A stretch of DNA of 64,000 nucleotides from Candidatus Marinacidobacterales bacterium (GCA_965226495.1 OZ245365.1:576001-640000); one strand, 5' to 3'. Shown: positions 9,147-64,000, counted from the stretch's first letter. Translations and numbers: made by a program. Notes: a model not told the origin generated them from the sequence alone.

Positions 9147-12100
9147 ATGTCTTGGCTCGGGGGTACTTTGACTAAGTCAGCGCATCCAAAACTTAGATCG
9201 CACGCATTGAAGGCTCTTGCCTTTTCTATTCTGGCCGTCTGTCTACCCACGTCCCTTTTCTCCGCCGAAGTGACCATCGAATCCTCTGCTCAGGTGAATC
9301 ACGAGGTGTGGGAAAGCCAGGGCGCGGCCGTCATCTTTACCTGCGACCAGATCGGCTACGTCTTTTACTTGGCAGCGTTCGATGCCACCTCGGGAACTCC
9401 AACCTACCGGCAGACGACCGATGGGGGAACCACCTGGGGACCGGCGGTCGCCATCACATCCCGGACGGACATCGAGGATCTCGGCGGCATTTGGTACGAC
9501 CGCTGGACGCCGGGCGATACGACAGGGACAAAGATCCACATCAGCTATTACTCCGGTGTGGCCGACGACACCACTTACTACCGAAGCCTGGACACCGCGG
9601 ATAACTCGCTGGGTAGCGAGGTCTTGGTCGCCGACATGACCAATATCAACCAAGATGACGGTCACACGTCGATCACCAAAGCTACCGACGGCGATCTCTT
9701 CATCTATGCCGCCAGCACGGGCGTTCAAGATGTCTGGCGGTCCATTGACAACGGCTCCAGCTGGGTATCCACTTCGGCTTCCTTTCTCGATGACGACCTC
9801 GATCAGGGAAACCTGATGCCGCTCTCCGGGGGAGACGTTCTGCTCACCTGGTATGATGCGACGGCTGCAACAACCTTTTCCCGCGTCTTAACCAACGGCT
9901 TGGTCTGGGATGTAGCGAGCACCACGGTTGCTACCAACATCAATTTCACCAGCCATACCTGGGCCAGCACTTGGGGCACTTCCATCGACAAAACCTCTGG
10001 CGATATCTTTCTTGCCGTCAATGATTGCCCCGCTGACCCGGTGGGTTGTCTTCCCACCCCTGACTCCAGCATCGAGACTTACTTTTACGATGAAAGTCTG
10101 CGTTCCTGGTCGCAAAGAACCAATGTTTTGAGCGCCGACACCTCCAATGTTCGAGACGTCAAGGTATCCATCGACGAGAACACCGGTGATATTTACGTCG
10201 TCTATCAACGCGGCGGAACCGGCAGTCACGTTTACTACAAGAGATCTGTCGACGGAATGACGAGCTGGGGAGTGGAAACGCAGGTGAGTACCACCGGCGA
10301 CGACCTGCGCGTGATTAGACCCAACCTGATGAGCGATGAGCGGCTCTATGCCGTGTGGTTCAATGATGATCTGTCGGATATCTTGGGCGACACCATCGTC
10401 GACCTCACCTCGTCTACCCCGTCTCTCACACTGACCGACCAAACCGCCACCCAGGTCGGCGACGCGCTCACCACCAGCTCGCCGGTCACGGACGTTGTTT
10501 TCTACCGCTTCAACCTCGCTCGGTCCGGCACCGTCACCGTGAACAATATCCGGGTCAACTTCACCACCGGGGGCGGGATCGTCAACGCTGACGTCACCAA
10601 CGGCCAGCTCTACCGGGACGAGAACAACGACGGAGCCTGGGACGTCGGCGATACGCTCCTGCTGGGCGGCGTGACACCCGCAGGAGGCGTGCTTGCCTTC
10701 AACGGCTTGGGCGAAGATCCGGCAGGGGGAACGAACTATCTGGTACGCGCCACGATCGATAACCTGGTCAACGGCGACACCACCACCTTCTCGGTCAACT
10801 TCGCGGATATCGACGTCGTGGAGGCCGGTGTCAACGAATGTGGCACCATCACCGACGCCGTCCATATCCAGGATTTGTTCCTCACACTGGCCAATCATGG
10901 CTCCGGCCAGGTCCCGGACCGGTTCACCGCCGTCACGCCGGTGACCGATGTGCTCTTCCGCTTCAACCTGACGGCGACGGGAACGATCACCGTGGACGTC
11001 TTGCGAGTCAACTTCACCACGGGTGGAGGCGTTGTCAATGGGGACGTCCCGGTGGGTCAACTTTGGGAGGACGTCAACAACGACGGTGCGATCGACGGCG
11101 GCGACAGTCAGATAGGTGGAAACGTCACCCCCACCGGTGGCGTCCTGACCTTCAACACTGATTTCTCGCCCGCCGTGAGCGGCACCAATTACCTGGTACG
11201 GGCCACGGTCGCAAACCTCCTGGGCGCGGACACCACGACCTTTTCGGTGGGCGCTGCCGACATCGACCCGCTCGAGCCAAGCGTCACCGAGTCCGGTTCT
11301 ATCACCAACGCCGTCCATACCCAGGACAACGTCGTCGACCTGACCCAGGGTCACTACCGCTGGCGCAACGATGACGGTGTTGAGTTAGGAGACACCAACG
11401 AGGTGAGCGAGACCGCCTCCACCACGACAACGAATGCGGCCTACGAGGCCTTGTCCGGTATGTCGATCACGCCGGGTGCGGGTGACTATCTGGTGTGGTT
11501 CAGCGGGACCCTGAGGAACAGCAGTACGGGCACCCAGCACGTGTCTCTTTACCTCGATGCGGGTCAGATTGCCGAGAGCGAGCGCGAGATTACAACTGAG
11601 ACTTCGATACCGAATACGCGTTACGTGACCGCCACGCATGCCTTCATTGCGGGAGTGACGGCGGGCCAAACAATCAACGTGCGTTGGAAGACGAGCGCCG
11701 GTACGGCGACGATGCTCGAGCGCACGCTGACCGTAACGAAGGTGAATGCCGCAGATGTTACGCAGGCCACGGCGACCACGCTTGCAACCGAAACAAGCGT
11801 CACCGACACACTCATCAACAGTATGACCCTCACCCCGGGGGCGGGTGACTATCTCATCTGGTTCAGCGGCTCGAACGCCAACACCGCGGCCCCTTCGAAG
11901 AACCACGTGTCGTTGTATGTGAACGGATCTCAGGTAACTCACACGGAGCGGGAGATCGATCAAGAGGAGTCCCTCGGGAATACCTTCTTCCCCGTGGCTT
12001 CACATGCACGAGTGCTTGCAGTGGGAGCGACCGACGCGATAGAAGCACGCTGGAGAGTTAGCGCCGGGACCGCCAACATGAACGCCCGGACGTTGACCGT

Positions 12101-15100
12101 CTACAAGATCAATCCCGCGGAAAACTTCCAAGCGAGTTCCGATATAGACGATGGACCCTTCTCCACCGCCAGCTATACCCAGGTGAACAGCATGACGCTC
12201 ACCCCGGGAGCGGGTGACTATCTCGTGTGGTTCAGCTCCTCCCTGGTAGCCGATAACTCTGGCGATACGGTGCACGTGTCCTTGTTCTCTGGGGGCAGCC
12301 AGGTGCCCCACAGCGAGCGTGAGATTTGGGTGGAAGGCTCGATCGATACGGCTCCCTTTCAATCGTTCCCGGTGGCCACGCACGCCTATATCACGGGAGT
12401 AGGTGGGAGCGATGCCATCGAGGTGCGATGGCAGCTCACGGGTGGTGGTACCGCCACGATGCACGAGCGCACTTTGGTGGTGCAAAAAGTACCGTCTCCG
12501 ATCCTGGCGACCTTTGCGGCCGCCGAGGACACGAAACTGACCGGCCTGGCCAAGAACACCATCAAACGGGTTCGCTTCGAGGTATCGAACGAGGGCAACG
12601 CAAGCTCAGGCGCCGTGACCTACCAGCTTCAGGTGGCGGAGACCGCCACTTGCAGTGCGGGCAGCTACAACAACGTTCCCACGGACACGAGCGGGCATTG
12701 GCAAGTTACGGACTCGTCATTCATCACTGATGGTGAGCCGACCGCGAACATCAGTCCCGGGCTTACCGACGACGCGACGACGTTTGTGTCGGGTGAGCTG
12801 AAGGACTTGGGTAACACCACCGGAACCATCACCCTAGGCGTAGACCAGTTCACCGAGGTCGAGTTTTCGGTCCAGGCACTGGCGGCGGCCACCGACGGCG
12901 GTGATTATTGCTTCCGCCTCCAAGTCCTCGATACCTATATCAACTACGCCGAGGTCCAGCTGGCCGCCCCGACCACCGATGTCACGGTGACTGTCTCCGG
13001 CACCCAGACAGCGACGATGGGAATCCCCAGCACGAACCAGTACGTGGGCGGGAAGTTCGTCATCGTCGACAACACCGGCTCGCGAAACATCACCGGTATC
13101 ACCATCACCGAGAGTGGGACCGTCGACGCTCTGAACAACCTGGATAACATCAAGCTCTTCTACGAGCTCGACACCACGGCTCCGTATGACGGAGCGAGCG
13201 AAAGCTACGCTGGGACAGAGTCTCAGTTCGGGGTAACGGACACGACCGGTTTCAGCGCTGCCAACGGAACATCGAGCTTCACGGGCACGGTGGCGATCAA
13301 CACGACATCGACGATGGTGGTGTACGTGGTGTTCGATGTAGGCGCGGGAGCCACCCCGGGCGAGACGGTCGAGATCAGCATCAATGACTCCTCGACGGAA
13401 GTCACGGCCAGTGCAGGAACCGTCGGTCCGGCCACACCGGTCGCGATCCCGGGGACCACGACACTTGCCGCGCCGCCTGCAGGTGTCATTTTCTACTCGG
13501 TGGGGACGGACAACACCGCGCTCTATTCGGATACGGCTTCGGCCGCGAGCGGAACGCTCACCCTGAATAGCGCAGCTGCCAACAACATTGGAGTGGGTGA
13601 CGAGATCCGGGAAGGAGCGAACCGTTACTACATCACCGGGCGCACCTCAGCGACCGTTTTTGCGATTCAGAATTCTGCCGCGAATGGTGGTACCCCGGGC
13701 GATACGAACATTACCTTCGCGCTCACCGCAATCACGATTTTTCGCGCCTTCAACGACTTGGACACCGCACCCACCGGCTCTGCGGACGCCAACCACCTCA
13801 ACACTACGGATCTCGTAACCGGTAACTTCCAGCTCAACTGGGCGTGTTACAACGACGGTCCCGATCCGTCGGTCGAAGTGGTGATTCAGGAGCCATGGGT
13901 CACTGGGCCTGCGAACTACATCCGGGTCTTCACTCCCACCGACTCAACCCAAGTCGGAATATCTCAGCGACACACCGGCGTTGCCGGCACCGGATACCGA
14001 ATTGCGCCTTCCACCGTCGCAGGCTCCGGCAATTTCAATCTGCTGCAGATCAGCACGGACTTCGGCCACGTCCGCATCGAGGGAATCGAGCTCGACGGCT
14101 CGAACGTGACCGGTGGCGACGGTGTATACGGTATCGACCTGGGTGACAGTGACGGCGCGAGCTCCGACGACATTCGGATCTCCCACTGCCTAATTCACGA
14201 CATCACCAACTCGAGCCTCGCGGATGCGAGCGGCCTTGATGTGGCAGGGATCAACGTCTTCGTTGGGCGCCCCTCGGACAACACGAAGATCTGGAACAAC
14301 ATCATCTACGACGTCTCCAACGTGAGCACCAACGGTGCCTCTGACGCGAAGGGCATCAGGATGAGCGCGCCCGGGGTTACCTACTACGTCTACAACAACA
14401 CCGTGTACGACATCAGGAAGACGGGCACGGGTGGTGACGCCAACGGTATCGAAGACAACGGTGTGACCGGCGTTCATGCGAAGAACAATTACGTGGGTCT
14501 CGTCCAGCACCTCATGGGTGGCCCGCAACTCTGCTTCAACGGCACGTTCCTTTCCGAGAACAACAACGTCTCTTCGGACGCCACGGCGGGGGGCGCCGGG
14601 AGTCAGATCAACCAGTCAGCTTATGCTTCCTACTTCGTGGACACCACGGGCGGTAGCGAAAACCTCCACCTACTCAATGACTCGAACACGCTTTGGGGCT
14701 CTTTCGGTACCGACCTGGATAGCGACGCCAATCTGCCAATTACGGACGACGTCGATGGCGAGGCGCGGGACGCGACCCAGCCGGACATCGGAGCGGATGA
14801 GGCCGCCCCTGCCGTCGTCGCCTTCTACTCGGTGGGGACGGACAACACCGCGCTTTATTCGGACACAGCCTCGGCGTCGGCCGGGACCCTCACGCTGAAC
14901 AGCCCTGCCGTCGACAAAATCGGAGTCGGTGACGAGATACGGGAGGGAGTGAATCGTTACTACATTACCGGACGCAACTCGGCGACCGAGTTTACGATCC
15001 AAAACTCTGCCGCCAATGGAGGTACACCGGGTGACGCGAACATTACCTTCGCGTCTACCGCCATCACGGTTTTCCGGGCGTTCAACACGCTCACGGCAGC

Positions 15101-18100
15101 CGAGGCAGGCTCCTCCAACGCGAGTCATCTCAACACGGCGAACCTCGTTACCGGCAACTTCCAGCTCAACTGGACCTGCTATGACGACGCTGCCCTGAAC
15201 GATACTGTCGTAATCAACGGGTACACGACGGGAGCCAGCAGCTACATCCACATCTATACACCGACCGCGACTAACGAAGTCGGAATCTCCCAACGTCACA
15301 CCGGAGTCGCAGGAACGGGATTCCGCCTAGTTCCGGTAACCAGTACCCCACCAAGTCTCATACGGGTTTTGCGTATCCAAGATGAGCACGTCCGCGTCAC
15401 CGGGATCGAGATCGATGGCTCCAGCATTACAAATGGCCAAGAGTTAGAGGGAGTTTCAACCTCTAACTCACTCACTGGGGCATCCGACATTCGACTCGAC
15501 AAACTCATTGTCCACGATATTCGCAGCGAGGACGGCGGCGGCGGAGATGCCGATCCGATTGGCGTTCATATCGGTGGCGGAAACGTCAAGCTCAGCAACT
15601 CGATCATCTATGACATCGCGCAAAGCACCGCCCAGGCTAACGCCGACGCTTACGGAAGTCGCACGTCCGGCGTCGCCAACAACGTCTTCTACCATAACAA
15701 TACGATCTTCAATATCAAGAACACCGGCAACACTCGCTCCGCTTGGGGAATCCAGCGCAGTGTCGGTACGGTCACTGCCAAGAACAATGCCGTATTGGAT
15801 GTGGAATCGACGAGCGGGGGAGAAGCGTGCTTCAACGGGGCGATGACGCAGAGCAATAATGTCTCCTCGGATGCCACCGCCGTCGGTCCCCAGAACCAAA
15901 CGTCGTACGCCACGTATTTCCAGAACATCACCAACGGCAGTGAGAATCTTCACCTGCGCAATGACTCGAACGCCCTTTGGGGCTCGTTCGGCGCCGATTT
16001 GGACACCGACCCCAATCTGCCGGTCACCGAAGATGTCGATGCAGAGGCCAGGGATGTTTCCACCCCTGACATTGGCGCCGATGAGTTCGCAGGCGCGGTG
16101 GGGGCGGGCGTCATTTACTACTCGGTGGGGACGGACAACACCGCACTTTATTCGGACACGGCGTCGGCGTCGGCCGGGACTCTCACGCTGACCAGTCCTG
16201 CCGTCGACAAAATCGGAGTGGGTGACGAGATACGGGAAGGGGCGAATCGCTACTACATCACCGGTCGAACCTCGGCAACCGAGTTTACGATCCAGAACTC
16301 CGCCGCGAACGGAGGCACACCGGGCGATACCAGCATTACCTTCGCCTCCACCGCGATCACTATTTTCCGGGCCTTCAACGGCCTCTCGGCGACCCAAGCT
16401 GGCTCGTCCGACGCCAACCATCTCGCTACGTCTAACCTCGTTACCGGCAACTTTCAGCTCAACTGGGCATGCTACAACGACGGGCCTATGAGCGACGTTC
16501 TCAGCGACTGGAACGGCGTTTCGATCACCGGTTGGACGACTGGGGTGAGCAACTACATTCGAATGTTCGCACCGGTCACGGCGACTGAAGTGGGAACCTC
16601 CCAACGGCATAGCGGAACAGCCGGCTCCGGATTCCGTTACGTCCCCAGTACGGCCACCCCTCAGGTCACCTTCAGTCTCGTGGACGTACAAGCGGATCAC
16701 TTTCGCATCGAAGGTATCGAGATCGATGGCTCTAGTGTTTCAAACGGACAGGGGGTCCAAGCAATTGGCACATTTGGCGTTACCACGGCCGGGAGCGATC
16801 TCTGGTTCGACAAACTGCTCATTCACAGCCTCACCAATACGACCGACGGTATCGTCAGAGCAATCTCCCTTCAAGATGGCAATCTCAAGCTGAGCAATTC
16901 CATTATCTATGGATTAACGAGTGTAGGAACAACGGCCACTAACTATGCGATAGGAGTTGAGCTAAACGAAGCGGCCGGAACTTTCTACATTCACAACAAT
17001 ACTATCTACAACATCAAACAAACTGCCGGCGCCGGTGGCGCAAACGCGTACGGGATAGTGCGATGGCCCGCCGCCGGTGCCACGACCGTCAAGAACACGT
17101 ACGTCGGAGACGTGAATTCTATATTGGGGTCAGAGTGGGATTTCAACGGTATCACGACCCAGAGCAACAACGTCTCCTCAGACGCCACCGCGGCGGGTGC
17201 TGGAAGCCAGGTAAACAAAGCGGCGTACGCGACCTACTTCCAGAACATCACTGCCGGCAGCGAGAATCTTCACCTTCGCAATGACTCCAACACCCTTTGG
17301 GGCTCGTTCGGCGCCGATCTAGACAGCGATCCCAACCTGCCGATCACCGATGATATAGATGGAGATGTTAGAGATGCCTCCACCCCTGACATTGGCGCCG
17401 ATGAGTTCACAGGCGCGGTGGGTGCGGGCGTCATTTACTACTCGGTGGGGACGGACAATACCGCGCTCTACTCGGGCAACGCCTCGGCGTCGAGCGGAAC
17501 GTTGACGCTGGCGAGCGCTGCGGTCGACAAGATCGGGGTGGGCGACGAGATACGGCTAGGAGCGAATCGGTACTACATCACCGGCCGGAACTCGTCGACC
17601 GAGTTTACGCTTCAAGACTCCGCGGCCAATGGAGGCACACCGGGCGATACGAATATCAACTTCGCGTCTACCGCGATCACGATCTTCCGAGCCTTCAACG
17701 ACTTGGACACCGCGACCACCGGCTCCGCGGACGCCAACCACCTCAACACCAGTAACCTCGTTGCCGGCGACTTCCAGCTCAACTGGGTCGGTTACAACGA
17801 CGGCCCTGACCCCTCGTGGAGGCCTGCCATCGAGGAGCCCTGGGTTACCGGAGCATCTAACTACATCCGATTATTCACGCCCACCGATCCAAGCCAAGTG
17901 GGAGTATCACAGAGGCACACCGGCACCGCTGGCACCGGATATCGAATCCGTCCCGTGGGATCAGCCATTGGTATAAGTCACTTCAACTTCGTGTTCATCA
18001 GCACCGACAACGGTTACGTACGATTGGAAGGTATTGAAATTGACGGCTCCGGGCTTACCAACGCCGAAAACATCCGGGGTATTTATATCAATGATCCTGC

Positions 18101-21100
18101 GCCAGGCACAGGGGAAGACGTTCGGATTTCCCATAGCCTTATCCATGATTTAGTCAATACCACGATCGATGATTCGGATCAGAGCAAAATCCTCGCTCTC
18201 TATGTAGACCAAACCAACAATACAAAGATCTCGAATAATGTCGTCTACCATCTCCTCAATGTCTCGACCAATGCGGCGAGCGAGACGACAGGACTAGACA
18301 GTGTGGTAGGCGGAACGACACATTATGTCTTTAACAATACGTTTTACGATATTCAGAGCACCGCAACTACCCAACAGGCACGCGGGATTTGGGATAGTGT
18401 TGGTTCGACGCTTGACGTCCAAAACAACTATGTAGGACTTGTAGACAGCGTCGGGGGATTGGAGGCCTGTTTCGTGGGGCCTTTTGCAAACGAGAACAAC
18501 AATGTGTCCTCCGACGCGACCGCCGCCGGCACCGACAGCCAGACCAACCAGTCGGCCTATGCCTCCTACTTCGTAGACACGACGGGTGGTAGCGAGAACC
18601 TCCATCTAATCAACGACTCCAACACGCTTTGGGGCTCGTTCGGCGCCGATCTAGACACCGATCCCAACCTGCCGGTCACCGATGACGTCGACGCCGATGC
18701 TCGGGATGCGTCGACCCCGGATATCGGCGCCGACGAGTTCAGTAATCCGGTCATTGTTACTTTCTATTCGGTGGGGACGGACAACACCGCCCTTTACTCG
18801 GACACCGGGTCCGCGTCGAGCGGTACGTTAACCCTGAACAGCGCTGCCGTGGACAAGATCGGAGTGGGCGACGAGATACGGGAAGGAGCGAACCGCTACT
18901 ACATCACCGGGCGCATCTCAGCCACCCAGTTTACGATTCAGAACTCCGCCGCGAATGGAGGCACACCGGGCGATACGAATATTACCTTCGGGTTAACCGC
19001 GATCACGATTTTTCGGGCCTTCAACACCCTCACCGCGGCCGAGGCGGGCTCCCTAGATGGCAGCCATCTCGGGACTGCGAACCTCGTCGTGAGCAATTTC
19101 CAACTCAACTGGACCTGCTATAACGATACTGCCCTCGACGATACCGTCTTCATCAACGGGTACACGACCGGGCCGAACAACTACATTCACATCTACACGC
19201 CCACGACGACGAGCGAAGTCGGGACCTCTCAGCGCCACGACGGAACGGCGGGAACTGGATTTCGCATGGTACCGGTAACCAGTACTCCGTCCAGTCTCGT
19301 GAACTTTGTCCGTATCGATGATGATCATGTCCGTATCACAGGCATCGAAATCGATGGCTCGAGCATTACCAACGCCCAAGAAATTACTGGAGTGTCAATC
19401 TCCAGTTCGGTTTCACCCTCGTCCGATATTCGATTGGATAAACTCATTATTCACGACATTCAAAGCCAGGACGGTACCGGCGGCGACGCTGATCCGATTG
19501 GCATCCATATTGGTGACGGAAATGTAAGGCTCAGTAACTCGATCATCTATGACATCGTGCAGACGACGGTGAACGTTGATGCCTGGCCACGAGGAGTGCG
19601 CATAAATTCCGGCAACCACTACCTTCACAACAATACGATCTTCAATATCAAGAACACCGGCAACGCCCTAGATGCCTATGGGATCGCAAGTGCTGGCACG
19701 GTGACCGTCAAGAGTACCGTCGTTTTAGATGTCGTGGCGTCCGGTGGACCACAAGCGTGCTTCAGCGGCGCGCTCACTCAAAGCAACAACGTCTCTTCAG
19801 GCGCCACTGCGGTCGGGCCCCAGAATCAATCGGGCCCGTACACCAACTATTTCGTAGACGTTAGCGACGGTACGGAGGACCTTCACCTGTTGAACGACTC
19901 GAACTCCCTCTGGGGTTCCTTCGGCGCCGACCTCGACAGCGATCCCAACCTTCCTATCACCGACGATATCGACGGCGGCGTGCGGGATGCGTCGACCCCA
20001 GATATCGGGGCTGATGAATTTGGTGCCGCCCCGGGGTCACTGACGCTGGCCGACCACGGCGCCACGCAAGTTGGGGACCAGTTCACTATCCAGGCTTCGG
20101 TCACCGACGTTTTGTTCCGTCTCAACCTCAGTCGCTCCGGTACGGTGACCGTCGACAACATTCGCGTCAATTTCACCGTCGCAGGAGGCGTGGCGAACGG
20201 CGATGTCAGCAACGGTGAGCTGTACCGCGACGTGAACAACAACGGCGTCTTCGACAGCGGGACCGACACACTCGTTCTGGGCAGCGTGACGCCGGTGGCC
20301 GGTGTCCTCGCCTTCAACAGTTTGAGCGAAGACCCGGGTGCCGGAACGAACTATATCGTCCGCGCCACCGTCAACAGTCTTAATGCCGGCGACACGACCA
20401 CGTTATCGGTCGGCACGGCGGACATCGATCTCGTGCAGGGGGGAGTCCTCGAATCGGGCTCGATCACGAACGCCGTGCACACCCGGGACGCTGGCGCCAT
20501 CATCTATTACTCGGTGGGGACGGACAACACCGCCCTTTACTCGGACACCGCTTCGGCATCGACAGGGGTCCTCACCCTGAATAGCGCTGCCGCCGACAAC
20601 ATCGGGGTGGGCGACGAGATACGAGAAGGTGCGAATCGCTACTACATCACTGGGCGCATTTCAGCGACCGAGTTCACGATCCAGGACTCGGCAGCGAATG
20701 GCGGCACGCCGGGCGATTCGAATATTAACTTCGCGCTGACTGGGATTACGATTTTCAGGGCGTTCAACACTCTCACGCTAGCCGAGGCGAACTCTCCAGA
20801 CGTTGACCATCTCAATACCTCCGACCTCGTCGCCGGCAACTTCCAGCTCAACTGGACTTGCTATGACGATCTTGCCCTGGATGACACGGCGATCATTGAC
20901 GGATATACCACGGGGGCCAGCAACTACATTCACATCTATACGCCGACGGCGACGAGTGAAGTCGGTGTCTCCCAACGTCACATCGGGGTCGCAGGAACGG
21001 GATTTCGCATAGCGCCCATCACCGCGGCTCCAGCCGATCCTCTAGAAATCATCGATATCCGCGATGATCATGTCCGCATCACCGGGATCGAGTTCGATGG

Positions 21101-21479: not shown

Positions 21480-21776
21480 ATGTTGCCGGACTTGGTACCG
21501 TAGCGTGCTTTGACGGCGCGATCACCCAAAGCAACAACGTCTCCTCGGATGCCACCGCCACGGGGGCGGGTAGCCAGATCAACCAGCTCTCCTACGCTAC
21601 TTACTTTGTAAGCACGATTGCCGGCAGTGAAAATCTTCACCTGCTAAACGACTCGAACACCCTTTGGGGCTCGTTCGGGGCGGATCTGGATAGCGATCCC
21701 GACCTTCCGGTCACGGATGACATCGACGGGGCGGCGCGTGACGCTTCGACTCCGGACATCGGTGCAGACGAGTTTG
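13491..21776 (+). repeat. Six copies of a ~1.3-kb constant-variable-constant beta-helix module in gene 1
   Basis: Starts at about 13491, 14823, 16116, 17436, 18762 and 20505 (TCGGTGGGGACGGACAA...). Four further copies in gene 3 at about 44438, 45728, 47054 and 49991. Confidence 0.9.
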
Positions 21777-54500: not shown

Positions 54501-57500
54501 TCGGCCCAGGGGCTCAGATCCGCCTCTTGAACAATACCATTTACAATTGTACAGACCAGGGAATCACCTCTGCCGTTGGCGATCACTCCACAGTGACACT
54601 GCAAAACAACATTGCCTTCTGCACTGGCAACGATTTCAACATTACCCTACCCGTCAATCCCGCGAGCAGTAACAACCTCTCCGGTGACGGGACTGCAACG
54701 GCCCGTAGTCCCGCCGGGGGCGACCGGCCTAACGTTGCACTGGTGGATGTTCAATTCGTCAACACAGCTGGCCCTATCGACCTTCACATCCGGAGCGGAA
54801 GTCTCCTCGGTGCCGAAGATGGGGGCGTCGATTTGAGCTCCGTTTTCAACTTGGACATCGATGCCGGGGCACGCACGGTTCTCTGGGAGATCGGGGCGGA
54901 TGATGTCGAGGCGACCACGGCGGTGGAGCTGGTGTTGTTCGAGGCTGTGGGTACAGACGGTGCTGTGGAGCTTAGGTGGGAGACCGGCTCGGAGCTCGGT
55001 AACCTGGGGTTCCATCTCTACCGGTCAAACACGGAGGAAGGCCCCTACGATCGGATCACGGCGAGCGTGATCCCAGGCTTGGGCTCGTCGCCCGAGGGTG
55101 CGAAGTACGCGTATCGCGACTCTGGCCTGACCAATGGCGTGACGTACTTCTACAAGCTGGAAGACATCGAGACGACCGGGATAACAGAGCTCCATGGACC
55201 GGTGTCCGCGATACCTACCGCGGAAGTTGTCGTCGAAGGCGACACCGGCGGCGAGGACGATTCGAGCGGAGACGAGCTCGGCGATCTGACCTCCCGCATC
55301 ACGTACGGCGACCCATCTGCGAACGAGCTGAACGTACGCCGCCGCGGGAAGAAGTGGATGGAGCTGGAGCTGATTACGGAAGGTTTCTACGCCATACCGC
55401 AAGACGACGGCTCAGTACTCCTTGAGGTCCCTGGCTTCGAAGACTTCGGGGGTCCGGACTTGCCCGATGTGCCGGCCTACCGTACCTGGCAAGACGTCTT
55501 GGCGGGTCGCAGGGTGAAGCTGGCATCGGTGAAGACCTCCGGCATGGCCGAGTTTGCAAGTCTGCGTCCGAGCTCCTCTGAGCTGATCGTCGTGGCTTCG
55601 GGAGACGGCACGGTGCAGACCGGCCGTCGCCGTAGAAAGCGACGCCAACCCCCTCATGTTTACTACCCCGAGTCCTGGGCCCAGCTAATGAACGTGGGTT
55701 TCCAAGGTCCGGCGAAGAAGGCACTAGTCGAGATGGCGCCGCTCCGGTGGGATGCCACGGCCGAGAAACTGGTCCTGGCCCGCCGCATCGTGGTCCGCAT
55801 CGCGTTCAAGGGTAAAGACAAGGCGGAGCTGAAACTTGGCAAGAGCCACCGAGAAGTCGGAAGCCATGCGAACCGGAGCGTCTACGCCCGGATAGCCGTG
55901 ACGGAGCCGGGTCTCTATGGGGTCAGCTACGAGTCGGTTTTCGGCAATAGGAGAAAGGCCATCAAGACGAGCGCTTTGAGACTGAGCCGTCAGGGAGTGC
56001 CGGTGGCGTTCTTCGTGAGCCCGAACGCCAAGAAGTTCAAGAAGAAGTCGGTGCTGTACTTCCTGAGCGATGGGGCGGCTTTGAACCCGTATGGTCACGA
56101 AGCGGTCTACGAGCTCGAGTCGAGCTCCGAAGGCTTGCAGATGGGAGCCGTGGACGGAAGCCCGGTAGGTGCGCCCACGAGCTTTTACTGGAAGACACTC
56201 GAGCGAGAAGAAAACCTTTTGTACCAGGCGGCCTTCGAGGGCGAAGAGGACATCTGGCAGTGGGATTGGCTGTTCGGCCCGATGACCAACGGCTACCCGT
56301 TCGAAGTCACGAACCTATCGCCGGTGGCCGAAAACTCGAAGCTCAGAGTGTGGCTCCACGGAGCGAGTGACTTCCCCGAGGACCCCGACCACCACGTAAG
56401 ACTCTACGTGAATGGAACCCTACTCACCGACACCTGGTGGGATGGCGAGACGCCTCACTTCGTGGAAGCGGAGCTTGGTCCGGGCTTGCTCCAAGAGGGC
56501 GAGAACACTCTGGAGATCGAAGAAGTGGGGGACACGGAAGCCCAGTACTCGATGGTGATGCTGGACCGTTTCGAGGTGAGCTACCCTGCCCAGCTCCTAG
56601 CCGAAGAGGGTGAACTGAAGGGCCTCTTCAGCGAGTCAGGAGTGGCGACTATCACTGGCCCACGTGGACAGATTGGAGCCCTCAGCCCACCCGCAGTCGC
56701 GCAGTCGACGGAGGGTGAGCCTTGGGGGTGGGGCCCCAAGGCATTGATATTCGACGTGACGGAGACCGAACCGCGACGAATCAGCGGAGCGAGCGTCGTT
56801 CCGGGTGGCTTGAGCTTCGGCGTGGAGTCGGGCCGTCACTATTTATTGACGGACTCGGTGAAGATTCCGGAAGTGAGCCGCGCGCAGTCGACCGGTCTCA
56901 AGCAAGTATGGAGCCGTGCTGAGTATCTGGTGATCGGACCTAGAGAATTCCTGGCTGCCGCGGTGCCGCTACTGGCCCACCGGAGGAACGAGGGTCTGAT
57001 AGCGGGAGCGATTGCGACGGAAGACATCTTCGACGAGTTCGGCTATGGCGAGGCGACACCGGAGTCGATCCGGGATTTCTTGAGCTACGTGTACCACCAC
57101 TGGAGCGAGCCGACCCTGAGGTACGTCGTCCTACTAGGAGACGGGACGTATGACACCAAGGACTATCTAGCAACCGGCGTCACGAGCCAGGTGCCGGTGA
57201 AGATCCTGAAGACGCGTTACATCTGGACGGCGTCGGATCCGTGGTACGGCGCCATCAACGGCGACGATATCTTGCCGGACGTGGCGATCGGACGACTACC
57301 CGCGGCCTCGGTAGAAGAAGCGGAGAGATTGGTTCAGAAGATCCTCGAGTACGAATCCGGGGAGGGAGATCCGGAGGCACCTTTTGTCCTGGTGGCGGAC
57401 AACCCGGACCATGGAGGAGACTTCGTGGCGAACGCGGAGGAGCTTGCGACGACGGTACTGTCTGGCCAAGAGATTGACGAGCTCTATCTTTCCGAGTTGG

Positions 57501-57986: not shown

Positions 57987-58352
57987 TCAAAGGAGGTCTT
58001 TACCCGTGGTGAGGGCCGTTCGGAGTAGCGGTTCCCCTTCTTGTTGGAAACGTTCCACTTCTTCATTCGTCAACACGAACAGATCGACTGCGCAGGGTAG
58101 CGGTCCCAGCGCGCGAAGCGCGGACGGGATCCGGTCGCGAGACTGATCGTGGGGACTGCTCTCTACCACGATTAGAAGATCGGCATCCGAGCGAGGTGAC
58201 GGGACCCCCGTTGTCAGAGAGCCGAAGAGGATCACTCGTTCAATCTCAGGAACCCGTTTCCGGGCACGCAACGCCGCCTGGCGAAGTTGCTCAATTCTCT
58301 CCGCTTTGTTGAGGTAGATGGCGCCGGCAGAAATCGATGATCGTTCTTGCAT
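57987..58352 (-). CDS. Minimal nucleotidyltransferase (MNT) domain protein, partner of the HEPN gene
   Basis: VILFGSLTTG..SPRSDADLLIV (GS...DxD) and VDLFVLT. Overlaps the HEPN gene. Confidence 0.85.
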   Translation of the reverse strand: MQERSSISAGAIYLNKAERIEQLRQAALRARKRVPEIERVILFGSLTTGVPSPRSDADLLIVVESSPHDQSRDRIPSALRALGPLPCAVDLFVLTNEEVERFQQEGEPLLRTALTTGKDLL

Positions 58353-58695
58353 CGGAGATCGCTCCTTCAGCCTCTCCCCGTGTGTACAGCTTCCCGGGAT
58401 ATCCCTCGGCGAAGCCGTTAGGGTAACGAGTCGGAATGTAATGCTTGTCGAGGCGGCTGGCGGTTTCGATGATCTCCTCAGGGGCTGCGGCGTCCTTGGG
58501 CAACGCCTCTACTAGCCCGGTGACCAAATGGCCCCACGGCTCTCCTCCCCGGACCATACTAAGGGCATTGACCGTCTTTTCAGCTGCTTGTTGCGAGGCG
58601 AAGGCGGCCCACTCGTAATCCGCGTCGTCGAGGGAATGCTCCGCGTGGCGGAGATCCCGCACGCCTTGCTCCAGCCAGTCACGCCATCTGTTCAT
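58291..58695 (-). CDS. HEPN domain protein
   Basis: MNRWRDWLEQGVRDL.HA...YEWAAFASQQAAEK...WGH...LDKHYIPTRYP. Start taken at MNRW (58695). Confidence 0.85.
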   Translation of the reverse strand: MNRWRDWLEQGVRDLRHAEHSLDDADYEWAAFASQQAAEKTVNALSMVRGGEPWGHLVTGLVEALPKDAAAPEEIIETASRLDKHYIPTRYPNGFAEGYPGKLYTRGEAEGAISDARTIIDFCRRHLPQQSGEN

Positions 58696-58789
58696 ATCTA
58701 ACAACTTATTATCGCATGCCACTGTGGCACACGCTAAGGCTGACCGCCGCGCGCAAAGGGGGTAGTATCAGAGGTCGCCAGGGAGCGCA

Positions 58790-58866
58790 TGCTGATCCCG
58801 GAGCCTTCTCCGGGCTTCTGCGTATCTACCATCTGACTCGGTGACCGGGCGCTCAGTCTCAGGTAG
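58790..58866 (+). pseudogene. Decayed remnant of the C25-cassette 3' end
   Basis: ggagccttctccgggcttctgcgtatctaccatctgactcggtgaccgggcgctcagtctcaggtag reads GAFSGLLRIYHL/(+1)LGDRALSLR*, compared with GAFPELLRIYHLLGDPALRLR* in genes 2 and 3. Confidence 0.8.
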
Positions 58867-58971
58867 TCCTCGGGCACGCTATTATCCAGAGAAACCATCT
58901 ACCGCCTGATCCAGCGCTCGGTTCCTTCCGCGGGCGGCGTTTAGAACCAAGAGTGCTATGACCGTTCGGTA

Positions 58972-59387
58972 TCAGGTGATGTTGAATCGCTTGCGGATAG
59001 CCATGACGAACGCCAGCAAATCGTCGAGGTGGTCCTCGACCACCTCTCTCAGGATGGCCAGATCGACGATCTCGTATCCGTGAACAAGTATATTGCGGAA
59101 ACCCACGATGTTCTTGAGATTCGCCACCAGGCGGTCCGGCAGAAAGCCTGCACGTTCCAGGATGTCGAATAACTCGCGGTTGGTACGAGGTTCTCCGAGG
59201 CGCTCGTCGGAAACGATGTGCGAAGCGACGTCGAGTGCCGCTTGGATTGCAATTTGAAGCGTGTGCTCGACAAAGCGCTCTTCACGGACATCACGCGAGA
59301 TTTCGGCCGGACGGCTGAGGGTTTGGAGCTCCCGAACACTGTCTCGATGAGAGCCAACTTCTTGGCTATCAGTTCGGGATCGGTCAC
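58972..59387 (-). pseudogene. DUF86/HepT-like HEPN RNase toxin, frameshifted near the 5' end, no adjacent MNT partner
   Basis: MTDPELIAKKLALIET (ORF 59049..59387) joins SVRELQ...QIAIQAALDVASHI...GFRNILVHGY (ORF 58972..59478) through a 1-nt shift at about 59340. RX4HXY motif intact. A sequencing error is possible. Confidence 0.75.
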
Positions 59388-59455
59388 TTAAGCTCCTTAC
59401 GACGGTGCGCCGCCTCCCGCAGCACAATTTTAGCATGTTCATCGATGTGTCGGGC

Positions 59456-59652
59456 GGCCCGGCGCACGGATTCCACAAAGCTGTACTCGCAAACGTCCTG
59501 AATCAGAACCACGAGCGTCTGGGCGACGCGATCCTTGCCGGCCAGCGTGCCTACGCACAGACGGGACTTTCCCCGAGCTTCTACGCATCTACCATCTCCT
59601 CGGCGATCCGGCCCTGCGGTTGAGATAGAGATCCAGTCCCCCGGCCACGCAC
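59456..59652 (+). pseudogene. Second remnant of the C25-cassette 3' end plus 3' flank
   Basis: GPAHGFHKAVLANVLNQNHERLGDAILAGQRAYAQTG/(fs)FPELLRIYHLLGDPALRLR*, followed by TAGAGATCCAGTCCCCCGGCCACGCAC, which is identical to 57959-57985. Confidence 0.85.
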
Positions 59653-59748
59653 CTACTCGTTACGCCTATTCAGTGCGCATGATGAATCAGCATCCTGCGC
59701 GGCTGAAACCGGCCAAGTAGGAAGCATTTCTGGGAGGTGGACAAAAAG

Positions 59749-60015
59749 CTAATCGTAATGGGTCCACATCCGGATGACTTTGACGATGCGCTCCTTCTCG
59801 TAGACCTGATAAACGAGACGGTGTTGCACGTTAATTCGGCGCGAGTAGGCGCCAGACAGGTCACCCATGAGCTTTTCGAAACGTGGCGGGCTCCGGAACG
59901 GATCTTTCTTCAAAATGGCGAGTAGGAACTCTACCTTTGGCCGAAGTCCTGACGCTGAGACTTTCTTCGCGTCTTTCTGGGCCTGGCGGGTCATGACGAC
60001 CCGCCACTCAGTCAC
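59749..60015 (-). CDS. yoeB: Txe/YoeB family toxin
   Basis: W.VV.T.QA.KD...L...PF...P..EKL.GDLSGAYSRRIN.QHRLVY......MWTHY. Confidence 0.88.
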   Translation of the reverse strand: MTEWRVVMTRQAQKDAKKVSASGLRPKVEFLLAILKKDPFRSPPRFEKLMGDLSGAYSRRINVQHRLVYQVYEKERIVKVIRMWTHYD

Positions 60016-60254
60016 CAGTCCAATTCCTCAGCGCAGTCTTCCAATCTGGTAGCGAGACCCTCACGAATCGATTCCCGCATGTTGGGAATCGAGAGGAGAT
60101 AGACCGTTTCTTGGAGCGCGCGCCAGTCATCTTCCGATACGAGGATGGCATTGGCTCTCTTACCACTGATCTGGATGACCTCGCTCGAAACAGCCACTTC
60201 ATCCAGCAAGCGGTAGAGGTTTTGCCTTGCCTTGGTTGCGGTGATGCTCTTCAT
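60012..60254 (-). CDS. yefM: Phd/YefM (Axe) family antitoxin
   Basis: MKSITATKARQNLYRLLDEV...NAILVSEDDWRALQETVYLLSIP. Overlaps the toxin by GTGA. RBS AGGAGG. Confidence 0.88.
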   Translation of the reverse strand: MKSITATKARQNLYRLLDEVAVSSEVIQISGKRANAILVSEDDWRALQETVYLLSIPNMRESIREGLATRLEDCAEELDW

Positions 60255-60273
60255 CAATCCTCCTATTTCATGT

Positions 60274-60487: not shown

Positions 60488-60513
60488 TAATTCGGGTGAT
60501 GGAAGTGCGTTCG

Positions 60514-63500
60514 ATGGGGAGTGGTGCGCCCGGTAACAAGATCCTGGGTCTTGCTCTGCTTGCTGTCACCTGTCTATTCGGAACGACCTCGCCCTCCTAT
60601 GCCCAGATCGCGACCGGTACCTACATCGGGGACAACAGCGCAGGCCGTGTGATCACAGTTGGCTTCCAGCCGGACATCGTCATTATTAAGGTCGACGACG
60701 GAAGCATTTCCACTCCAACACAGGGGGTCATCAGAACCTCCACGATGGGCAACACGAAGGAAGCCTGGGGCAGTTCCGCCCTCCAGGCTGGTTACATCAC
60801 AGCGCTCACGGGTACGGGGTTCACCGTGGGCAACGACATTCGAGTCAATGGCAGGGATATCTGCGGGCTGGGGACGGACCCTTGTGTCTACTACTGGATT
60901 GCCCTCAAGGCCGATAGCGATATCAAACTCGGCACCTACGTTGGCGACGGGAACGCCACGCAGTCCGTCACCGGGGTGGGTTTCTCTCCCGAGTACGTGA
61001 TGACGATGGCTGACGCCAATCACTACCCTTACAACCGCACCAATCAGGGAACCGTGGAATCTCGTCGGCTGCGCAACGGAGGAACACCCAACAACGGCCT
61101 TCCATCTCTCGACGTCGGCGGCTTCACCGTCGGAAATGCAGGAAGTACCTCCGAGTTTCAAAACGAGAACCTCGTGACCTACCACTACATCGCGCTCAAT
61201 GACGTCCCTGGGAAGATCAAGGTGGGTGGCTACGCAGGCATCGGGTCCTCGCAAAACATCACTGGACTCGGTTTTCAACCCGAATTCGTGATGACGCAGG
61301 CTTGGACCGACTCCAAGGAGGCGAATTTCAAGAGCGACAAGATGGCGGCCGGCGAGACGATGGACTTTGCTTCGGCCGTTCTTACGGGTCGCATCACGGC
61401 GATTCTTCCCGATGGTTTCACCGTGACCGGTGACAGCCGCGTCGGAAACTCCGGCGAAAGCTACGGTTACGTCGCCTTCAACGCCGGTCAAAACCCGCTT
61501 TGCTGGGACCCAAGCTACTTACACCGTCAGCAGGTGACGGTCTCGGCCGGATCCGTCGCGGTCCCGGCCGACTACACGCAATCTTTGACGTTCGACCACG
61601 CGGCGCTGGTCTCGGCGGGAAAATCCCTGGCGAACGGCGACGATCTCCGAGTTGTCTATTGGAATGGCGCTACCTGGGAAGAGCTCAACCGCATCCTCGA
61701 TCCCGCGTCCTCGTGGAACAGCGCCACAACCACGATCTTGTTCAAGCTACCGGCCGGAATCGCTGCCTCTTCTTCGGACACCAACTACTACCTTCATTAT
61801 GGCAACCCCGCCGCGACCAATCCGCCCGCGGACCCCGCATACGTATACGTCCATTACGATGGCTACGAGAGTGGGGACTACGGTGGCTGGACCGGTGAGA
61901 GCTCGGGGCCCGGAGACACCAACACTATCGTCACTGGGCCATCTCCCGTTCACAGTGGCACCTACGCCTCGGAGTCCTTCGTGGACGGCGACGCGGTTCA
62001 GTCGGACTGGGCGTTCGTCGACGAGGACTTCACCGGCAAGCCGGGTCTGCACTCGACGATCTGGGTCTACATTCCGACCGGCTACACCGCAGAAGATGAC
62101 ATCACCGTTCTTCATACCTACACCGGTGGCTGGACGACGAAGGTGGCGTCTTTGGCAATCCGCTCACCTATTGGGGATATGAGGCCCCTCCTTGGCATTC
62201 ACCCGGCCGGACCCACGTTTCATTTCGGTACCGGTACCGCGCTGAGTTTGGATACATGGCACAAGTTGGAGATGAAAATCTGGGTCGATCCCGTCAACGG
62301 GCGCGCCGAGGTGTGGCAAGACGACGTCAAGACCATAGACCTGACCGGCGTCAACACCGGCAGTGGACCCATCGACCATACGATCCACAACATATTTCAT
62401 AAGACGATTAGCGCCGTGCTCCCCGACACTCTCTATTTCGACGACTCTCTCGACCAGGTCTGGCTGGATGGCAACGACCCGACCGCCGTCTTAGGTGCCG
62501 AAACGGATGGGTGCGCCTGCGATTGGCAATTCACCAAGAAGATCACGATCGATCACACGAAAGTCGGGCTGGATAACACGGGCTCCCTGTCCGGCAACTT
62601 TCCCGTCTTCATCGATATCACCGCGGATTACCTGAAGACGACAGCAAACGGTGGCGACATACAAAACGCCAACGGCTATGACATCATCTTCCTGGATTCC
62701 GACCAGATGACTCCGCTCGACTACGAGGTCGAAAAATACGATGGATCGACTGGGCGCCTCGTGGCGTGGGTGAGCGTGCCCAACCTGTCCAAGGCGACCG
62801 ACCGAGATATCTTCCTTTCTTATAGCAACGCCTGCATCTTCTCGTCTCAGGAGAACGTCGCCAATATTTGGACTTCCTTCAACGGAGTCTGGCACTCCAA
62901 GGAAACACCAGCAGACGGAACGACCGATGCTCATCGAGATTCGACCTCAAACAACAACCACGGAACCCCAGAGGACTTCGAAGATGGAGACGGCGGATCG
63001 ACCGACGCGGTAGGCAATTTCGATGGCGCCAATGATTACAAGGTTAATGCCGACCGAGTGGCAGTCAATGACGACGCGAGTCTGGAGCCCAGTGGCGACA
63101 TGACCCTGGAGGCTTGGGTGCAGTTCGATGCATCGACGGACGGATCGATCGTCTACAAGCGTCATTCGGCAGCGCCATGGTTCTCTTATCAACTCTACGC
63201 GAGCAGCTCGCAAGGCACCTTTAAGCCGTTTTTTGAATGGAGAAATAGTTCAGGGACCGCCTGGGTCACGTTCCAGACTGCTGGTGCATTGAGCATGGGG
63301 ACTTGGTACCACCTGGTTGGTGTGCATTCGGGAACGGATCTCAAACTCTATATCAACGGAAGTAACGTCAACGTGACGAATGGGACGACTTCTGGGACGC
63401 TCTTCGATTCCGATTTCGAACTTAATATCGGGGCGACTTGGAGCGGAGGTCTGTCGATTGACGGTATCATCGACGAGGTTCGCATTTCTCCTAGCGCTCG

Positions 63501-64000
63501 CTCGGAGGATTGGATTCTGACCTCCTACAACCAGGGCTTACCCTCTTTCTACACCATTGAAAGTGCCGAGGACGTGACCCTTGCCGATCATGCGGTAGGT
63601 CAGGAATCGGACAAGTTCTTCTCCGCCCCCTCGGTCACGGGAGCGGAGCTCTTTGCCTTTCAGCTCACCAACAACACAGCCGGCGCCCTCACCGTGGACC
63701 AAGTGGTTCTGCCCCTGTCCGCCGTCAGTGGAATTGCCGATACGGATTTCGCCAATCTGCTTCTCTACGTAGATGACAACGGAGATGGAACGATCGATGG
63801 CTCCGATGTCACCGGCACGGTGGGGGGCTCGGGTTCCGTCGACGCGGGCGTGACGACAATCACTTTCGGTGCGAATTTCCCGATAGCCGCCAGCTCAACC
63901 GTCAACTACATCCTCATCGGGGACGCAAACAATCTGGTCTCCAACGACACGGTCACCATCGATCTAGATACTACTGATGTAACGCTCCTTTCGGGCACCG
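60514..64000 (+). CDS. Giant secreted repeat protein 4, 5' part (GFQPD repeats, DUF2341-like and LamG-like domains); runs off the window
   Basis: Not in the ORF track because it has no stop. MGSGAPGNKILGLALLAVTCLFGTTSPSYA-QIATGTYIGD...VGFQPD; DUF2341-like KKITIDH...NFPVFI...DYEVEKYD...VAWV; LamG-like TLEAWV...WYHLVGV...LYING...GIIDEVRIS; and a TLADH..GQ module. ATG 60499 is an alternative start. Confidence 0.88.
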   Translation, partial: MGSGAPGNKILGLALLAVTCLFGTTSPSYAQIATGTYIGDNSAGRVITVGFQPDIVIIKVDDGSISTPTQGVIRTSTMGNTKEAWGSSALQAGYITALTGTGFTVGNDIRVNGRDICGLGTDPCVYYWIALKADSDIKLGTYVGDGNATQSVTGVGFSPEYVMTMADANHYPYNRTNQGTVESRRLRNGGTPNNGLPSLDVGGFTVGNAGSTSEFQNENLVTYHYIALNDVPGKIKVGGYAGIGSSQNITGLGFQPEFVMTQAWTDSKEANFKSDKMAAGETMDFASAVLTGRITAILPDGFTVTGDSRVGNSGESYGYVAFNAGQNPLCWDPSYLHRQQVTVSAGSVAVPADYTQSLTFDHAALVSAGKSLANGDDLRVVYWNGATWEELNRILDPASSWNSATTTILFKLPAGIAASSSDTNYYLHYGNPAATNPPADPAYVYVHYDGYESGDYGGWTGESSGPGDTNTIVTGPSPVHSGTYASESFVDGDAVQSDWAFVDEDFTGKPGLHSTIWVYIPTGYTAEDDITVLHTYTGGWTTKVASLAIRSPIGDMRPLLGIHPAGPTFHFGTGTALSLDTWHKLEMKIWVDPVNGRAEVWQDDVKTIDLTGVNTGSGPIDHTIHNIFHKTISAVLPDTLYFDDSLDQVWLDGNDPTAVLGAETDGCACDWQFTKKITIDHTKVGLDNTGSLSGNFPVFIDITADYLKTTANGGDIQNANGYDIIFLDSDQMTPLDYEVEKYDGSTGRLVAWVSVPNLSKATDRDIFLSYSNACIFSSQENVANIWTSFNGVWHSKETPADGTTDAHRDSTSNNNHGTPEDFEDGDGGSTDAVGNFDGANDYKVNADRVAVNDDASLEPSGDMTLEAWVQFDASTDGSIVYKRHSAAPWFSYQLYASSSQGTFKPFFEWRNSSGTAWVTFQTAGALSMGTWYHLVGVHSGTDLKLYINGSNVNVTNGTTSGTLFDSDFELNIGATWSGGLSIDGIIDEVRISPSARSEDWILTSYNQGLPSFYTIESAEDVTLADHAVGQESDKFFSAPSVTGAELFAFQLTNNTAGALTVDQVVLPLSAVSGIADTDFANLLLYVDDNGDGTIDGSDVTGTVGGSGSVDAGVTTITFGANFPIAASSTVNYILIGDANNLVSNDTVTIDLDTTDVTLLSGT

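Follow-up and report, generated by a model that had tools for sequence, protein, structure and literature searches.

A C25 peptidase cassette with a gingipain-type prodomain at the ends of giant secreted proteins in a Marinacidobacterales genome: a candidate self-processing module

Here, we propose that a tandem array of genes in a Candidatus Marinacidobacterales bacterium encodes giant secreted polyproteins that process themselves. The array begins in a stretch of 64,000 nucleotides (GCA_965226495.1, OZ245365.1:576001-640000, part of a single 6.34-Mb contig; called the window below, with positions counted from its first letter), and the three genes that are complete there each end in a cassette of 1014-1015 residues carrying a peptidase of family C25, behind a long N-terminal part that we call the passenger. 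We put a probability of about one half on the cassette being a self-activating and self-severing zymogen module. The proposal builds on profile matches and alignments that support the cassette as a real, conserved and catalytically intact clan-CD C25 module, on the placing of a gingipain-type prodomain with Arg-rich loops between passenger and enzyme, and on a fibronectin type III (FnIII)-like domain whose genomic coupling to this type of peptidase is a new result.

To our knowledge, C25 peptidases are understood only in Bacteroidota, where they comprise the gingipains, which are virulence proteases, and PorU, the sortase in type IX secretion systems (T9SS). Among 151 evenly sampled Acidobacteriota genomes (a tally that includes one unpublished genome, G174), 66 encode C25 domains at E 1e-40 or better, mostly in proteins of 900-1700 residues, while none of the 151 has a match to SprA_N of the SprA translocon, which argues that these peptidases work outside T9SS. 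The lack of T9SS in a host of PorU and gingipain relatives points to an undescribed route of surface-protein processing or display. Here, giant surface-type proteins end in members of one well-populated C25 subfamily, which comes with a prodomain and with an FnIII-like partner of its own. If the module does cut or anchor its own passenger, it would be a compact and portable device for the display or release of very large proteins and would show a role of PorU-like enzymes outside type IX secretion, and the split and fused forms described below constitute a concrete, testable pair of enzyme and partner. A literature search returned no publication on the combination of a giant passenger with a C25 cassette.

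Architecture and conservation of the cassette

A first-pass annotation of the window had reported a near-identical cassette of about 1015 residues in three complete genes, with the catalytic dyad intact. The length holds at 1014-1015 residues but the near-identity does not, as the cassettes at the C-termini of genes 1, 2 and 3 (g1, g2, g3) are 79-82% identical in pairwise protein comparison. The dyad stands as reported, and recomputing the coordinates from the open reading frame (ORF) start at 21377 returns the His (26558) and the Cys (26660) of g1. In all three genes the Pfam family Peptidase_C25 (PF01364, clan CD) is matched over its full length (1-374 of 374), at E 1e-74 to 3e-79 and 252-267 bits against a cut-off of 23. 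The match takes up the last ~345 residues of the cassette and reaches residue 1198 of 1199, so that the protein ends with its catalytic domain.

The motifs YMGHGA and TMNCLNG are both present, and the His of GHG and the Cys of NC align with His211 and Cys244 of the gingipain RgpB. In cassette numbering these are H886 and C920, and neither varies among the aligned cassettes (48 of 48). The dyad motifs occur in six of the six array copies and are both kept in two split copies at 223-247 kb of the genome; in a ninth copy only the Cys pattern was matched (VMGCHLG), its His being read by eye.

An AlphaFold model of the cassette, built on the 48 aligned cassettes (mean predicted local distance difference test score, pLDDT, 86.5; predicted template modelling score, pTM, 0.83), shows the succession of parts listed in Table 1, with disordered segments at residues 104-124, 307-316 and 584-606. 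The gingipain-type prodomain was matched by sequence profile as well as by fold: gingipain prodomains were found at E 2.5e-10 and 9.9e-07, and in a second comparison at 7.1e-08 (Kgp) and 4.5e-06 (RgpB). The profile and structure searches that the first-pass annotation had suggested therefore recover both the full-length Peptidase_C25 and the prodomain fold (5mun_A, Z 16.0), but not Pfam's Propeptide_C25, which taken alone reaches E 0.019 and falls below its cut-off. Besides the basic linker behind the prodomain, there is a second Arg-rich loop within it, near residues 232-250, in or beside the stretch that aligns to the loop region of the gingipain prodomain, and the Arg-rich character of both loops is kept across the 48 sequences. 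Among the array copies, the ratio of nonsynonymous to synonymous substitution rates (dN/dS) lies at ~0.08-0.11 for each of the folded parts and at 0.27 for the acidic linker; these values are rough, as dS is near saturation, and show the folded parts of the cassette to be under purifying selection.

Relation to PorU, gingipains and toxin peptidases

By structure, the catalytic domain of the predicted model resembles RgpB (4ief_B; Z 40.9, root-mean-square deviation (rmsd) 2.1 over 318 residues, 25% identity) and Kgp (Z 36.1), and residues 303-1014 of the model are collinear with residues 25-788 of PorU (6za2_A; Z 21.9, rmsd 5.7 over 556 residues; Foldseek E 1.4e-25 over 837 columns). In a profile search of solved structures PorU came out best, with 118.7 bits over 415 positions, followed by RgpB with 104.7 bits over 347, and the cassette is thus, by sequence profile, about equally far from the two. 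The curated PorU family of NCBIfam (NF033707) was matched only at its positions 306-732 of 1095, and the scores of 192.5 and 203.1 bits do not reach the cut-off of 420. Scores against this profile are graded, from 409-417 bits in Cytophagia through 337-361 in Chloroflexota and 257 in Deltaproteobacteria to 179-215 for stand-alone peptidases of Acidobacteriota and 192-203 for the cassette. The architecture is a hybrid, with a gingipain-type prodomain before a PorU-type body. Because the PorU match is partial and below the cut-off, the build hybrid and the scores graded, we file the cassette under C25, where its profile scores place it as a divergent branch of the PorU-like group and not as PorU itself. 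Hence the PorU likeness that the first-pass annotation had seen by eye ahead of the catalytic domain is borne out by the collinearity but not by the curated cut-off, and its choice between a PorU-like and a degradative gingipain grouping receives a divided answer: PorU is the best profile match, and the catalytic domain is at least as close to the structure of RgpB.

PorU cuts just ahead of the C-terminal domain (CTD) of T9SS cargo. It has in common with the cassette the C25 family and a His/Cys dyad behind the same series of beta-sandwiches, and each works, or would work, next to a linker and an Ig-like domain. Published work on PorU describes an enzyme that is kept latent by dimerisation and not by a prodomain, that prefers T/E/D/N before and G/A/S after the cut, and whose acyl-enzyme is resolved by a surface amine (PMC10202324). 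The cassette differs in having neither PorU's C-terminal third nor a CTD and in being fused to its own giant passenger; its gingipain-type prodomain did not align to PorU, and its genome is without detectable SprA, PorV or CTD cargo.

RgpA and Kgp are protease-adhesin polyproteins. Together with RgpB, these gingipains of Porphyromonas gingivalis are zymogens with an N-terminal prodomain (PDB 1cvr, 4ief, 4rbm, 5mun), and both their catalytic and their prodomain folds recur in the cassette. The joining of a protease to non-catalytic modules, a polyprotein logic, is likewise found in both. In a review (PMC4357240), gingipain latency is ascribed to a prodomain that puts a basic residue into the S1 pocket, Arg126 in the loop of RgpB, and activation of RgpB to autolytic cuts at Arg126 and Arg229, within and at the end of the prodomain; the Arg-rich loops in and behind the prodomain of the cassette invite comparison with these sites. 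RgpB Asp163, the acidic residue of the S1 pocket that confers Arg or Lys specificity, falls opposite different cassette residues in two alignments. The order of parts is reversed with respect to gingipains, as the non-catalytic modules are N-terminal and the catalytic domain comes last, with no IgSF (immunoglobulin superfamily) domain or CTD behind it, and the cassette has PorU-type body domains between prodomain and catalytic domain.

A more distant parallel is offered by the C80 domains of MARTX (multifunctional autoprocessing repeats-in-toxin) and large clostridial toxins, where a clan-CD peptidase domain inside a giant secreted protein cuts its own chain, an analogy backed by the C80 entry in the same review (PMC4357240). 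These domains belong to family C80 and not C25, and they are ligand-activated and internal, unlike the C-terminal peptidase of the cassette; no C80 structure stands among the fold matches listed for the cassette model.

The FnIII-like domain and its coupling to the peptidase

The first 100 residues of the cassette form the FnIII-like domain, which is its most conserved part: its columns are on average 68% identical in 44 sequences, as against 32% over the full length of the cassette, the two values coming from different sets of sequences. Pfam has no family for it even at E 10, and the one NCBIfam row within a limit of E 1 is at chance level (E 0.11, 11 bits where the cut-off is 800). Modelled on its own (pLDDT 92.4), the domain matches ordinary FnIII domains, such as those of Ihog and of an Fn3-like protein of C. 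thermocellum, at Z of about 10-10.8. A kinship with the T9SS CTD was considered and dropped as unsupported, there being no CTD in the best 50 matches listed by Foldseek or VIA. The Atlas search returned unnamed clusters only, the nearest named family, Por_Secre_tail, standing at 0.86, below the level that counts.

In its own genome, the FnIII-like domain is confined to the nine C25 genes, apart from one weak match to a generic FnIII domain. Across the Marinacidobacterales it occurs in 15 of 21 genomes (among them the unpublished G011) in 0-17 copies, the ~3-Mb genomes of one family being mostly without it. In the Acidobacteriota sample, 10 of the 151 genomes carry it at E 1e-25 or better, and all ten also encode C25, compared with 66 of 151 overall.

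Outside the class to which the window belongs, the domain is found on separate secreted or anchored proteins. Four unrelated secreted proteins of 468-524 residues (loci L068, L069, L070 and L072) have it at their C-terminus, followed by about 9-22 residues. Split forms beside stand-alone peptidases were found in genomes G161, G139 and G075 and at loci L045, L055 and L053. In G161, which encodes a single FnIII-like protein and a single peptidase, the two genes (L067:4288-5928 and L067:7407-10910) lie 1.5 kb apart on the same strand, the peptidase having a signal that looks lipoprotein-like by eye; in G139, two FnIII-like proteins precede the peptidase; and in G075 (locus L074), the FnIII-like protein is 2.7 kb from a peptidase made up of signal peptide, prodomain, body and C25 domain. 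At an Anaerolineales and a Chloroflexota locus, small proteins (L045:368-1363, L045:6812-7432, L055:9923-11011) start with a signal peptide and the FnIII-like domain, continue with a Thr/Pro-rich stretch and close with a C-terminal membrane helix and a basic tail; L045 and L055 encode such proteins directly upstream of stand-alone PorU-like C25 genes. At a Cytophagia locus, the gene that follows a near-PorU gene has the domain immediately before a T9SS CTD, and a Deltaproteobacteria locus (L054) encodes a signal peptide followed by nothing but the complete cassette with its FnIII-like domain, no passenger being present.

That this type of peptidase and the FnIII-like domain are genomically coupled is thus well supported, and the domain is most likely a partner of the enzyme, serving as a recognition handle or a docking piece. 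As a side observation, the N-terminal part of a secreted protein with the FnIII-like domain (L073:4007-5389) weakly resembles the model 'cistern family PEP-CTERM protein', at E 0.0064 and far short of its cut-off, which, if real, would hint at one type of passenger that has different sorting ends in different lineages.

Distribution, passengers and type IX secretion markers

A search of 1.84 billion cluster representatives with the cassette gave 28361 matches at E <=0.001 and 5321 at E <=1e-30. In the best 150, which are proteins of about 1200-3600 residues, the entire cassette stands at the very C-terminal end, and more than 100 distinct relatives, mostly from Acidobacteriota, have different N-termini ahead of a full cassette. 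In a set of 5.8 billion proteins the Pfam families in these N-terminal parts include Beta_helix, Laminin_G_3, DUF2341, DUF7483, SBBP, VCBS/UnbV and NHL, and the only source name encountered for the relatives is "C25 family cysteine peptidase". The 61 loci kept from species-representative genomes are nearly all from Acidobacteriota. Some Acidobacteriota proteins of ~1000 residues might pass for stand-alone cassettes; the ten that were read start inside passengers and have no signal peptide, and were set aside as fragments.

The first-pass annotation had called for a survey of genomes for the cassette behind variable N-termini, and for T9SS genes. The former found the more than 100 passengers just described. 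As to the latter, the genome of the window, which is 94.8% complete, has no match to SprA_N, Por_Secre_tail or PorV (PorZ and PorQ were not searched for), and two other Marinacidobacterales genomes have none for the same markers, bar one weak match to the PorV profile below its cut-off (G003, E 3.5e-4). As positive controls, two Cytophagia genomes gave at least 150 and 118 CTD matches, with SprA in one and PorV in both; the GldM_1st profile is uninformative as a T9SS marker, having no match in these controls. The annotation had also seen no T9SS CTD, repeats-in-toxin (RTX) sequence or autotransporter in the window proteins, and neither Pfam nor NCBIfam reports a Por_Secre_tail, RTX or autotransporter family there.

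An all-against-all BLAST of the ORFs of 63 loci found no neighbouring gene common to the Acidobacteriota loci, except for Wzz/tyrosine-kinase-like ORFs in four of them. In the genome of the window, Wzz/tyrosine-kinase polysaccharide genes are neighbours of two of its three C25 loci. The ninth C25 giant (L065, L066; genome 5.48-5.51 Mb) is placed among genes for Wzz/tyrosine kinase, Wzy_C, Polysacc_synt_2 and DegT, and no polysaccharide genes lie within about 10 kb of the main array. A radical SAM/SPASM gene is found directly downstream in the polysaccharide locus of the ninth copy.

Proposed mechanism and alternatives

In light of this anatomy, how might the cassette act? Each gene product would be exported by Sec and would join a giant mosaic passenger, about 3000-5100 residues of beta-helix, Laminin-G-like and other modules, to a latent peptidase of 1014 residues, a zymogen in which the gingipain-type prodomain is placed ahead of the PorU-type body and of a C25 domain with intact His and Cys. 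After export, the peptidase would activate itself through a cut in at least one of the conserved, disordered segments flanking the prodomain; candidates are the two Arg-rich loops and the acidic linker that follows the FnIII-like domain. As these candidate segments all sit between passenger and enzyme, activation would sever the passenger, with the FnIII-like domain at its end, from the enzyme body. Given that the prodomain fold is the same as in gingipains, that Arg-rich stretches are found at comparable places and that a linker is present, a self-processing polyprotein seems the most economical reading. The first-pass annotation had assigned the cassette a role in cis, as a chassis for the maturation or anchoring of the passenger, and such a role gains indirect support, by analogy with the self-cutting gingipains, from a gingipain-type prodomain with Arg-rich loops between passenger and enzyme, and from the FnIII-like coupling. 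Covalent anchoring of the passenger is less likely.

Several points weigh against self-processing. The self-cleavage, the site of the cut and the fate of the products are all inferred from anatomy and comparative genomics. The alignment around RgpB Asp163 is ambiguous, so that the Arg-rich loops need not serve as substrates. Latency in PorU itself is a matter of its dimer; the enzyme is kept latent in this way and has no prodomain (PMC10202324), and the passenger-free cassette of L054 indicates that the module makes sense without a passenger. In five genomes (G050, G066, G069, G088 and G112) the FnIII-like proteins are separate, with no C25 gene on the same contig or nearby. Finally, self-processing leaves unexplained how a protein of 300-600 kDa would cross the outer membrane.

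A first alternative is that the array encodes displayed degradative proteases, the passenger being an adhesin or stalk and the gingipain-like enzyme acting in trans, in nutrition or in interactions with hosts or microbes, with removal of the prodomain as the only self-cut. Its case is made by the catalytic domain, structurally closest to RgpB (Z 40.9) and Kgp (Z 36.1), by the gingipain-type prodomain, by the frequency of C25 in Acidobacteriota, mostly in proteins of moderate length (900-1700 residues), by the passenger-free cassette of L054, and by the precedent of RgpA and Kgp as polyproteins of protease and adhesin; a proteinase-adhesin complex is mentioned in the abstract of PMC10319874. 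The position of the prodomain between passenger and enzyme speaks against this alternative, in that its removal would cut the stalk off unless the pieces stay non-covalently bound, and a dedicated substrate or partner agrees better with the split forms, with a fusion that is strictly 1:1 and with the high conservation of the FnIII-like domain. We regard it as unlikely, if far from negligible.

A wider view, which we think rather unlikely, is that the FnIII-like domain and the PorU-like C25 peptidase form a T9SS-independent protein-sorting system across several phyla, where the peptidase would recognise the domain, cut behind it and hand the protein to a surface acceptor. The genes of the window would then encode self-sorting cargo with a single-use sortase. 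In these giants the part cut off would be the peptidase itself, and in other proteins it could be a short tail, a T9SS CTD or a membrane anchor.

Somewhat more doubtful again is a sortase that acts in cis: it would cut behind the FnIII-like domain, hold the passenger by its new C-terminus as a thioester on the Cys, and then transfer it to the amine of a surface glycan or lipid for covalent display. It would account for the collinearity of the pre-catalytic body with PorU, for PorU as the best profile match among solved structures and for the graded scores against the PorU profile. The Cytophagia protein has the FnIII-like domain directly before a T9SS CTD, the place where PorU cuts, and the acidic linker of the cassette, rich in D/E/T residues with G/S/A directly after them, matches by eye the site preference of PorU (PMC10202324). 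The two C25 loci that adjoin Wzz/tyrosine-kinase genes, including that of the ninth copy, would fit a glycan acceptor, but polysaccharide genes are absent from about 10 kb around the main array. Further points against are that no PorV, SprA or CTD was found in the genome (PorZ and PorQ were not searched for) and that the curated PorU cut-off is missed, and hydrolysis and transpeptidation are indistinguishable by sequence. It is very unlikely that the FnIII-like domain instead binds the peptidase body to dock or anchor it, tethering it to a membrane-anchored Thr/Pro stalk in Chloroflexota and to the passenger, uncut, in the giants: the anchored Thr/Pro proteins upstream of the C25 genes of L045 and L055, and the L054 protein, where the domain is the N-terminal domain of the peptidase itself, would suit this, but in the four Acidobacteriota proteins the domain is C-terminal with a tail of ~9-22 residues, a placement typical of a sorting or recognition signal.

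Layout and regulation of the array

The four tandem plus-strand genes (g1-g4) with signal peptides reported in the first-pass annotation are seen in the ORFs, and the translated N-termini are all signal-peptide-like; the array is larger still, with six genes and a truncated seventh. It lies 3' of a block of ordinary metabolic genes, and its coordinates within the window are given in Table 1.

Table 1. Features of the array and of its cassettes, in window positions unless marked otherwise.
Feature	Position	Strand	Description
sigma-54-type -24/-12 motif GGCAY-N5-TTGCTTTA	9092..9109	+	upstream of gene 1
Same sigma-54-type motif	27159-27176, 39431-39448, 60472-60489; genome 646485, 667902		before giant genes
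Gene 1 (g1)	9147..26950	+	giant secreted protein, 5934 residues counting a missing base behind 21415
Gene 1 as assembled	9147..21479 and 21377..26950	+	two frames
Gene 1 cassette	23903..26947	+	1015 residues; His codon start 26558, Cys codon start 26660
Gene 2 (g2)	27201..39230	+	4009-residue secreted protein, beta-helix modules; cassette 36186..39227
Gene 3 (g3)	39512..57961	+	6149 residues from ATG 39512; open frame back to TTG 39416
FnIII-like beta-sandwich	cassette 1-100; gene 3 54917..55216	+	Z about 10 to FnIII domains
Acidic Gly/Ser/Asp/Glu linker	cassette 101-125; gene 3 55217..55291	+	pLDDT below 50 at 104-124; length varies among relatives
Gingipain-type prodomain	cassette 126-300; gene 3 55292..55816	+	Kgp prodomain 5mun_A Z 16.0, rmsd 3.2, 170 of 182 residues
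Basic disordered linker	cassette 301-320; gene 3 55817..55876	+	consensus in relatives GGxRGRRxR
PorU-type pre-catalytic beta-sandwich body	cassette 321-660; gene 3 55877..56896	+	includes CBM36-like jelly roll 426-555
C25 catalytic domain	cassette 667-1014; gene 3 56915..57958	+	His886 57572-57574, Cys920 57674-57676
Insertion zone between genes 3 and 4	57987..60257	-	three toxin-antitoxin-type modules
Second, weaker cassette 3'-end relic	58659-58835		between genes 3 and 4
Cassette 3'-end relic	59459..59625	+	last ~56 codons, 73-95% identical to gene 3 end, internal frame shift
Gene 4 (g4), 5' part	60514..64000	+	ATG 60514 or GTG 60496; runs past window end

Gene 1 is broken near 21408-21425, its two frames overlapping at 21377-21479. 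Contigs from four of four public runs, belonging to four studies, have one extra G behind 21415, which restores a single frame of 5934 residues, and the break is therefore a missing base or a private mutation of the present assembly. The sixth array gene (g6) and both copies at 223-247 kb are also frame-broken, and the same missing-base cause may apply. In g3, ATG 39512 is the likely start, as judged from the sigma-54-type motif at 39431-39448, which would fall inside the frame begun at TTG. Repeated modules make up the mosaic of this protein, some of them beta-helix units with DIGADE at the end. Gene 4 has DUF7483, DUF2341 and Laminin_G_3 modules, and its cassette ends at genome position 646374.

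The whole genome gives 11 C25 matches, which make up nine genes. Six form the main array (g1-g6, genome 585-668 kb), extending beyond the window; the opposite strand has two further copies in tandem at 223-247 kb, whose C25 part contains frame breaks; and the ninth, at 5.49 Mb, is divergent and without the prodomain segment. Behind g6 lies the truncated seventh member (L062:3913-6291, genome about 667.9-670.3 kb), which combines a signal peptide with a single beta-helix module and a sigma-54-type motif of its own, lacks a cassette, and is overlapped at its end by an AAA_16/HEAT gene.

Passenger modules are common to several array genes in mosaic fashion. The insertion zone between g3 and g4 holds a nucleotidyltransferase (NTP_transf_2) with HEPN, a HepT-like module, and a YoeB-like one with Phd/YefM. 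Taken together with the relics of cassette 3' ends (Table 1), the inserted modules and the mosaic sharing indicate that the array is dynamic. The pattern at 57987-60257 looks like insertion scars that displaced an older gene end.

The sigma-54-type motif stands 25-65 nt before the gene starts, with four exact matches and one with a single mismatch to GGCAY-N5-TTGCTTTA, against 0.09 expected. A looser form of the motif has 25 matches in the genome, six of them in the array, and rpoN is present. About 100 nt upstream of each motif is a conserved element, CCACATATGGGGAA ... CGTGGCCAACTCCCC, which may be an activator site. Since each has a sigma-54-type motif of its own, the giant genes appear to be separate, co-regulated units and not one operon.

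Elsewhere in the window, two class-V aminotransferase/kynureninase-like genes (1422-2621 and 4717-5901) flank a gene with four mechanosensitive-channel helix repeats; these neighbours appear to be ordinary metabolic genes unrelated to the array.

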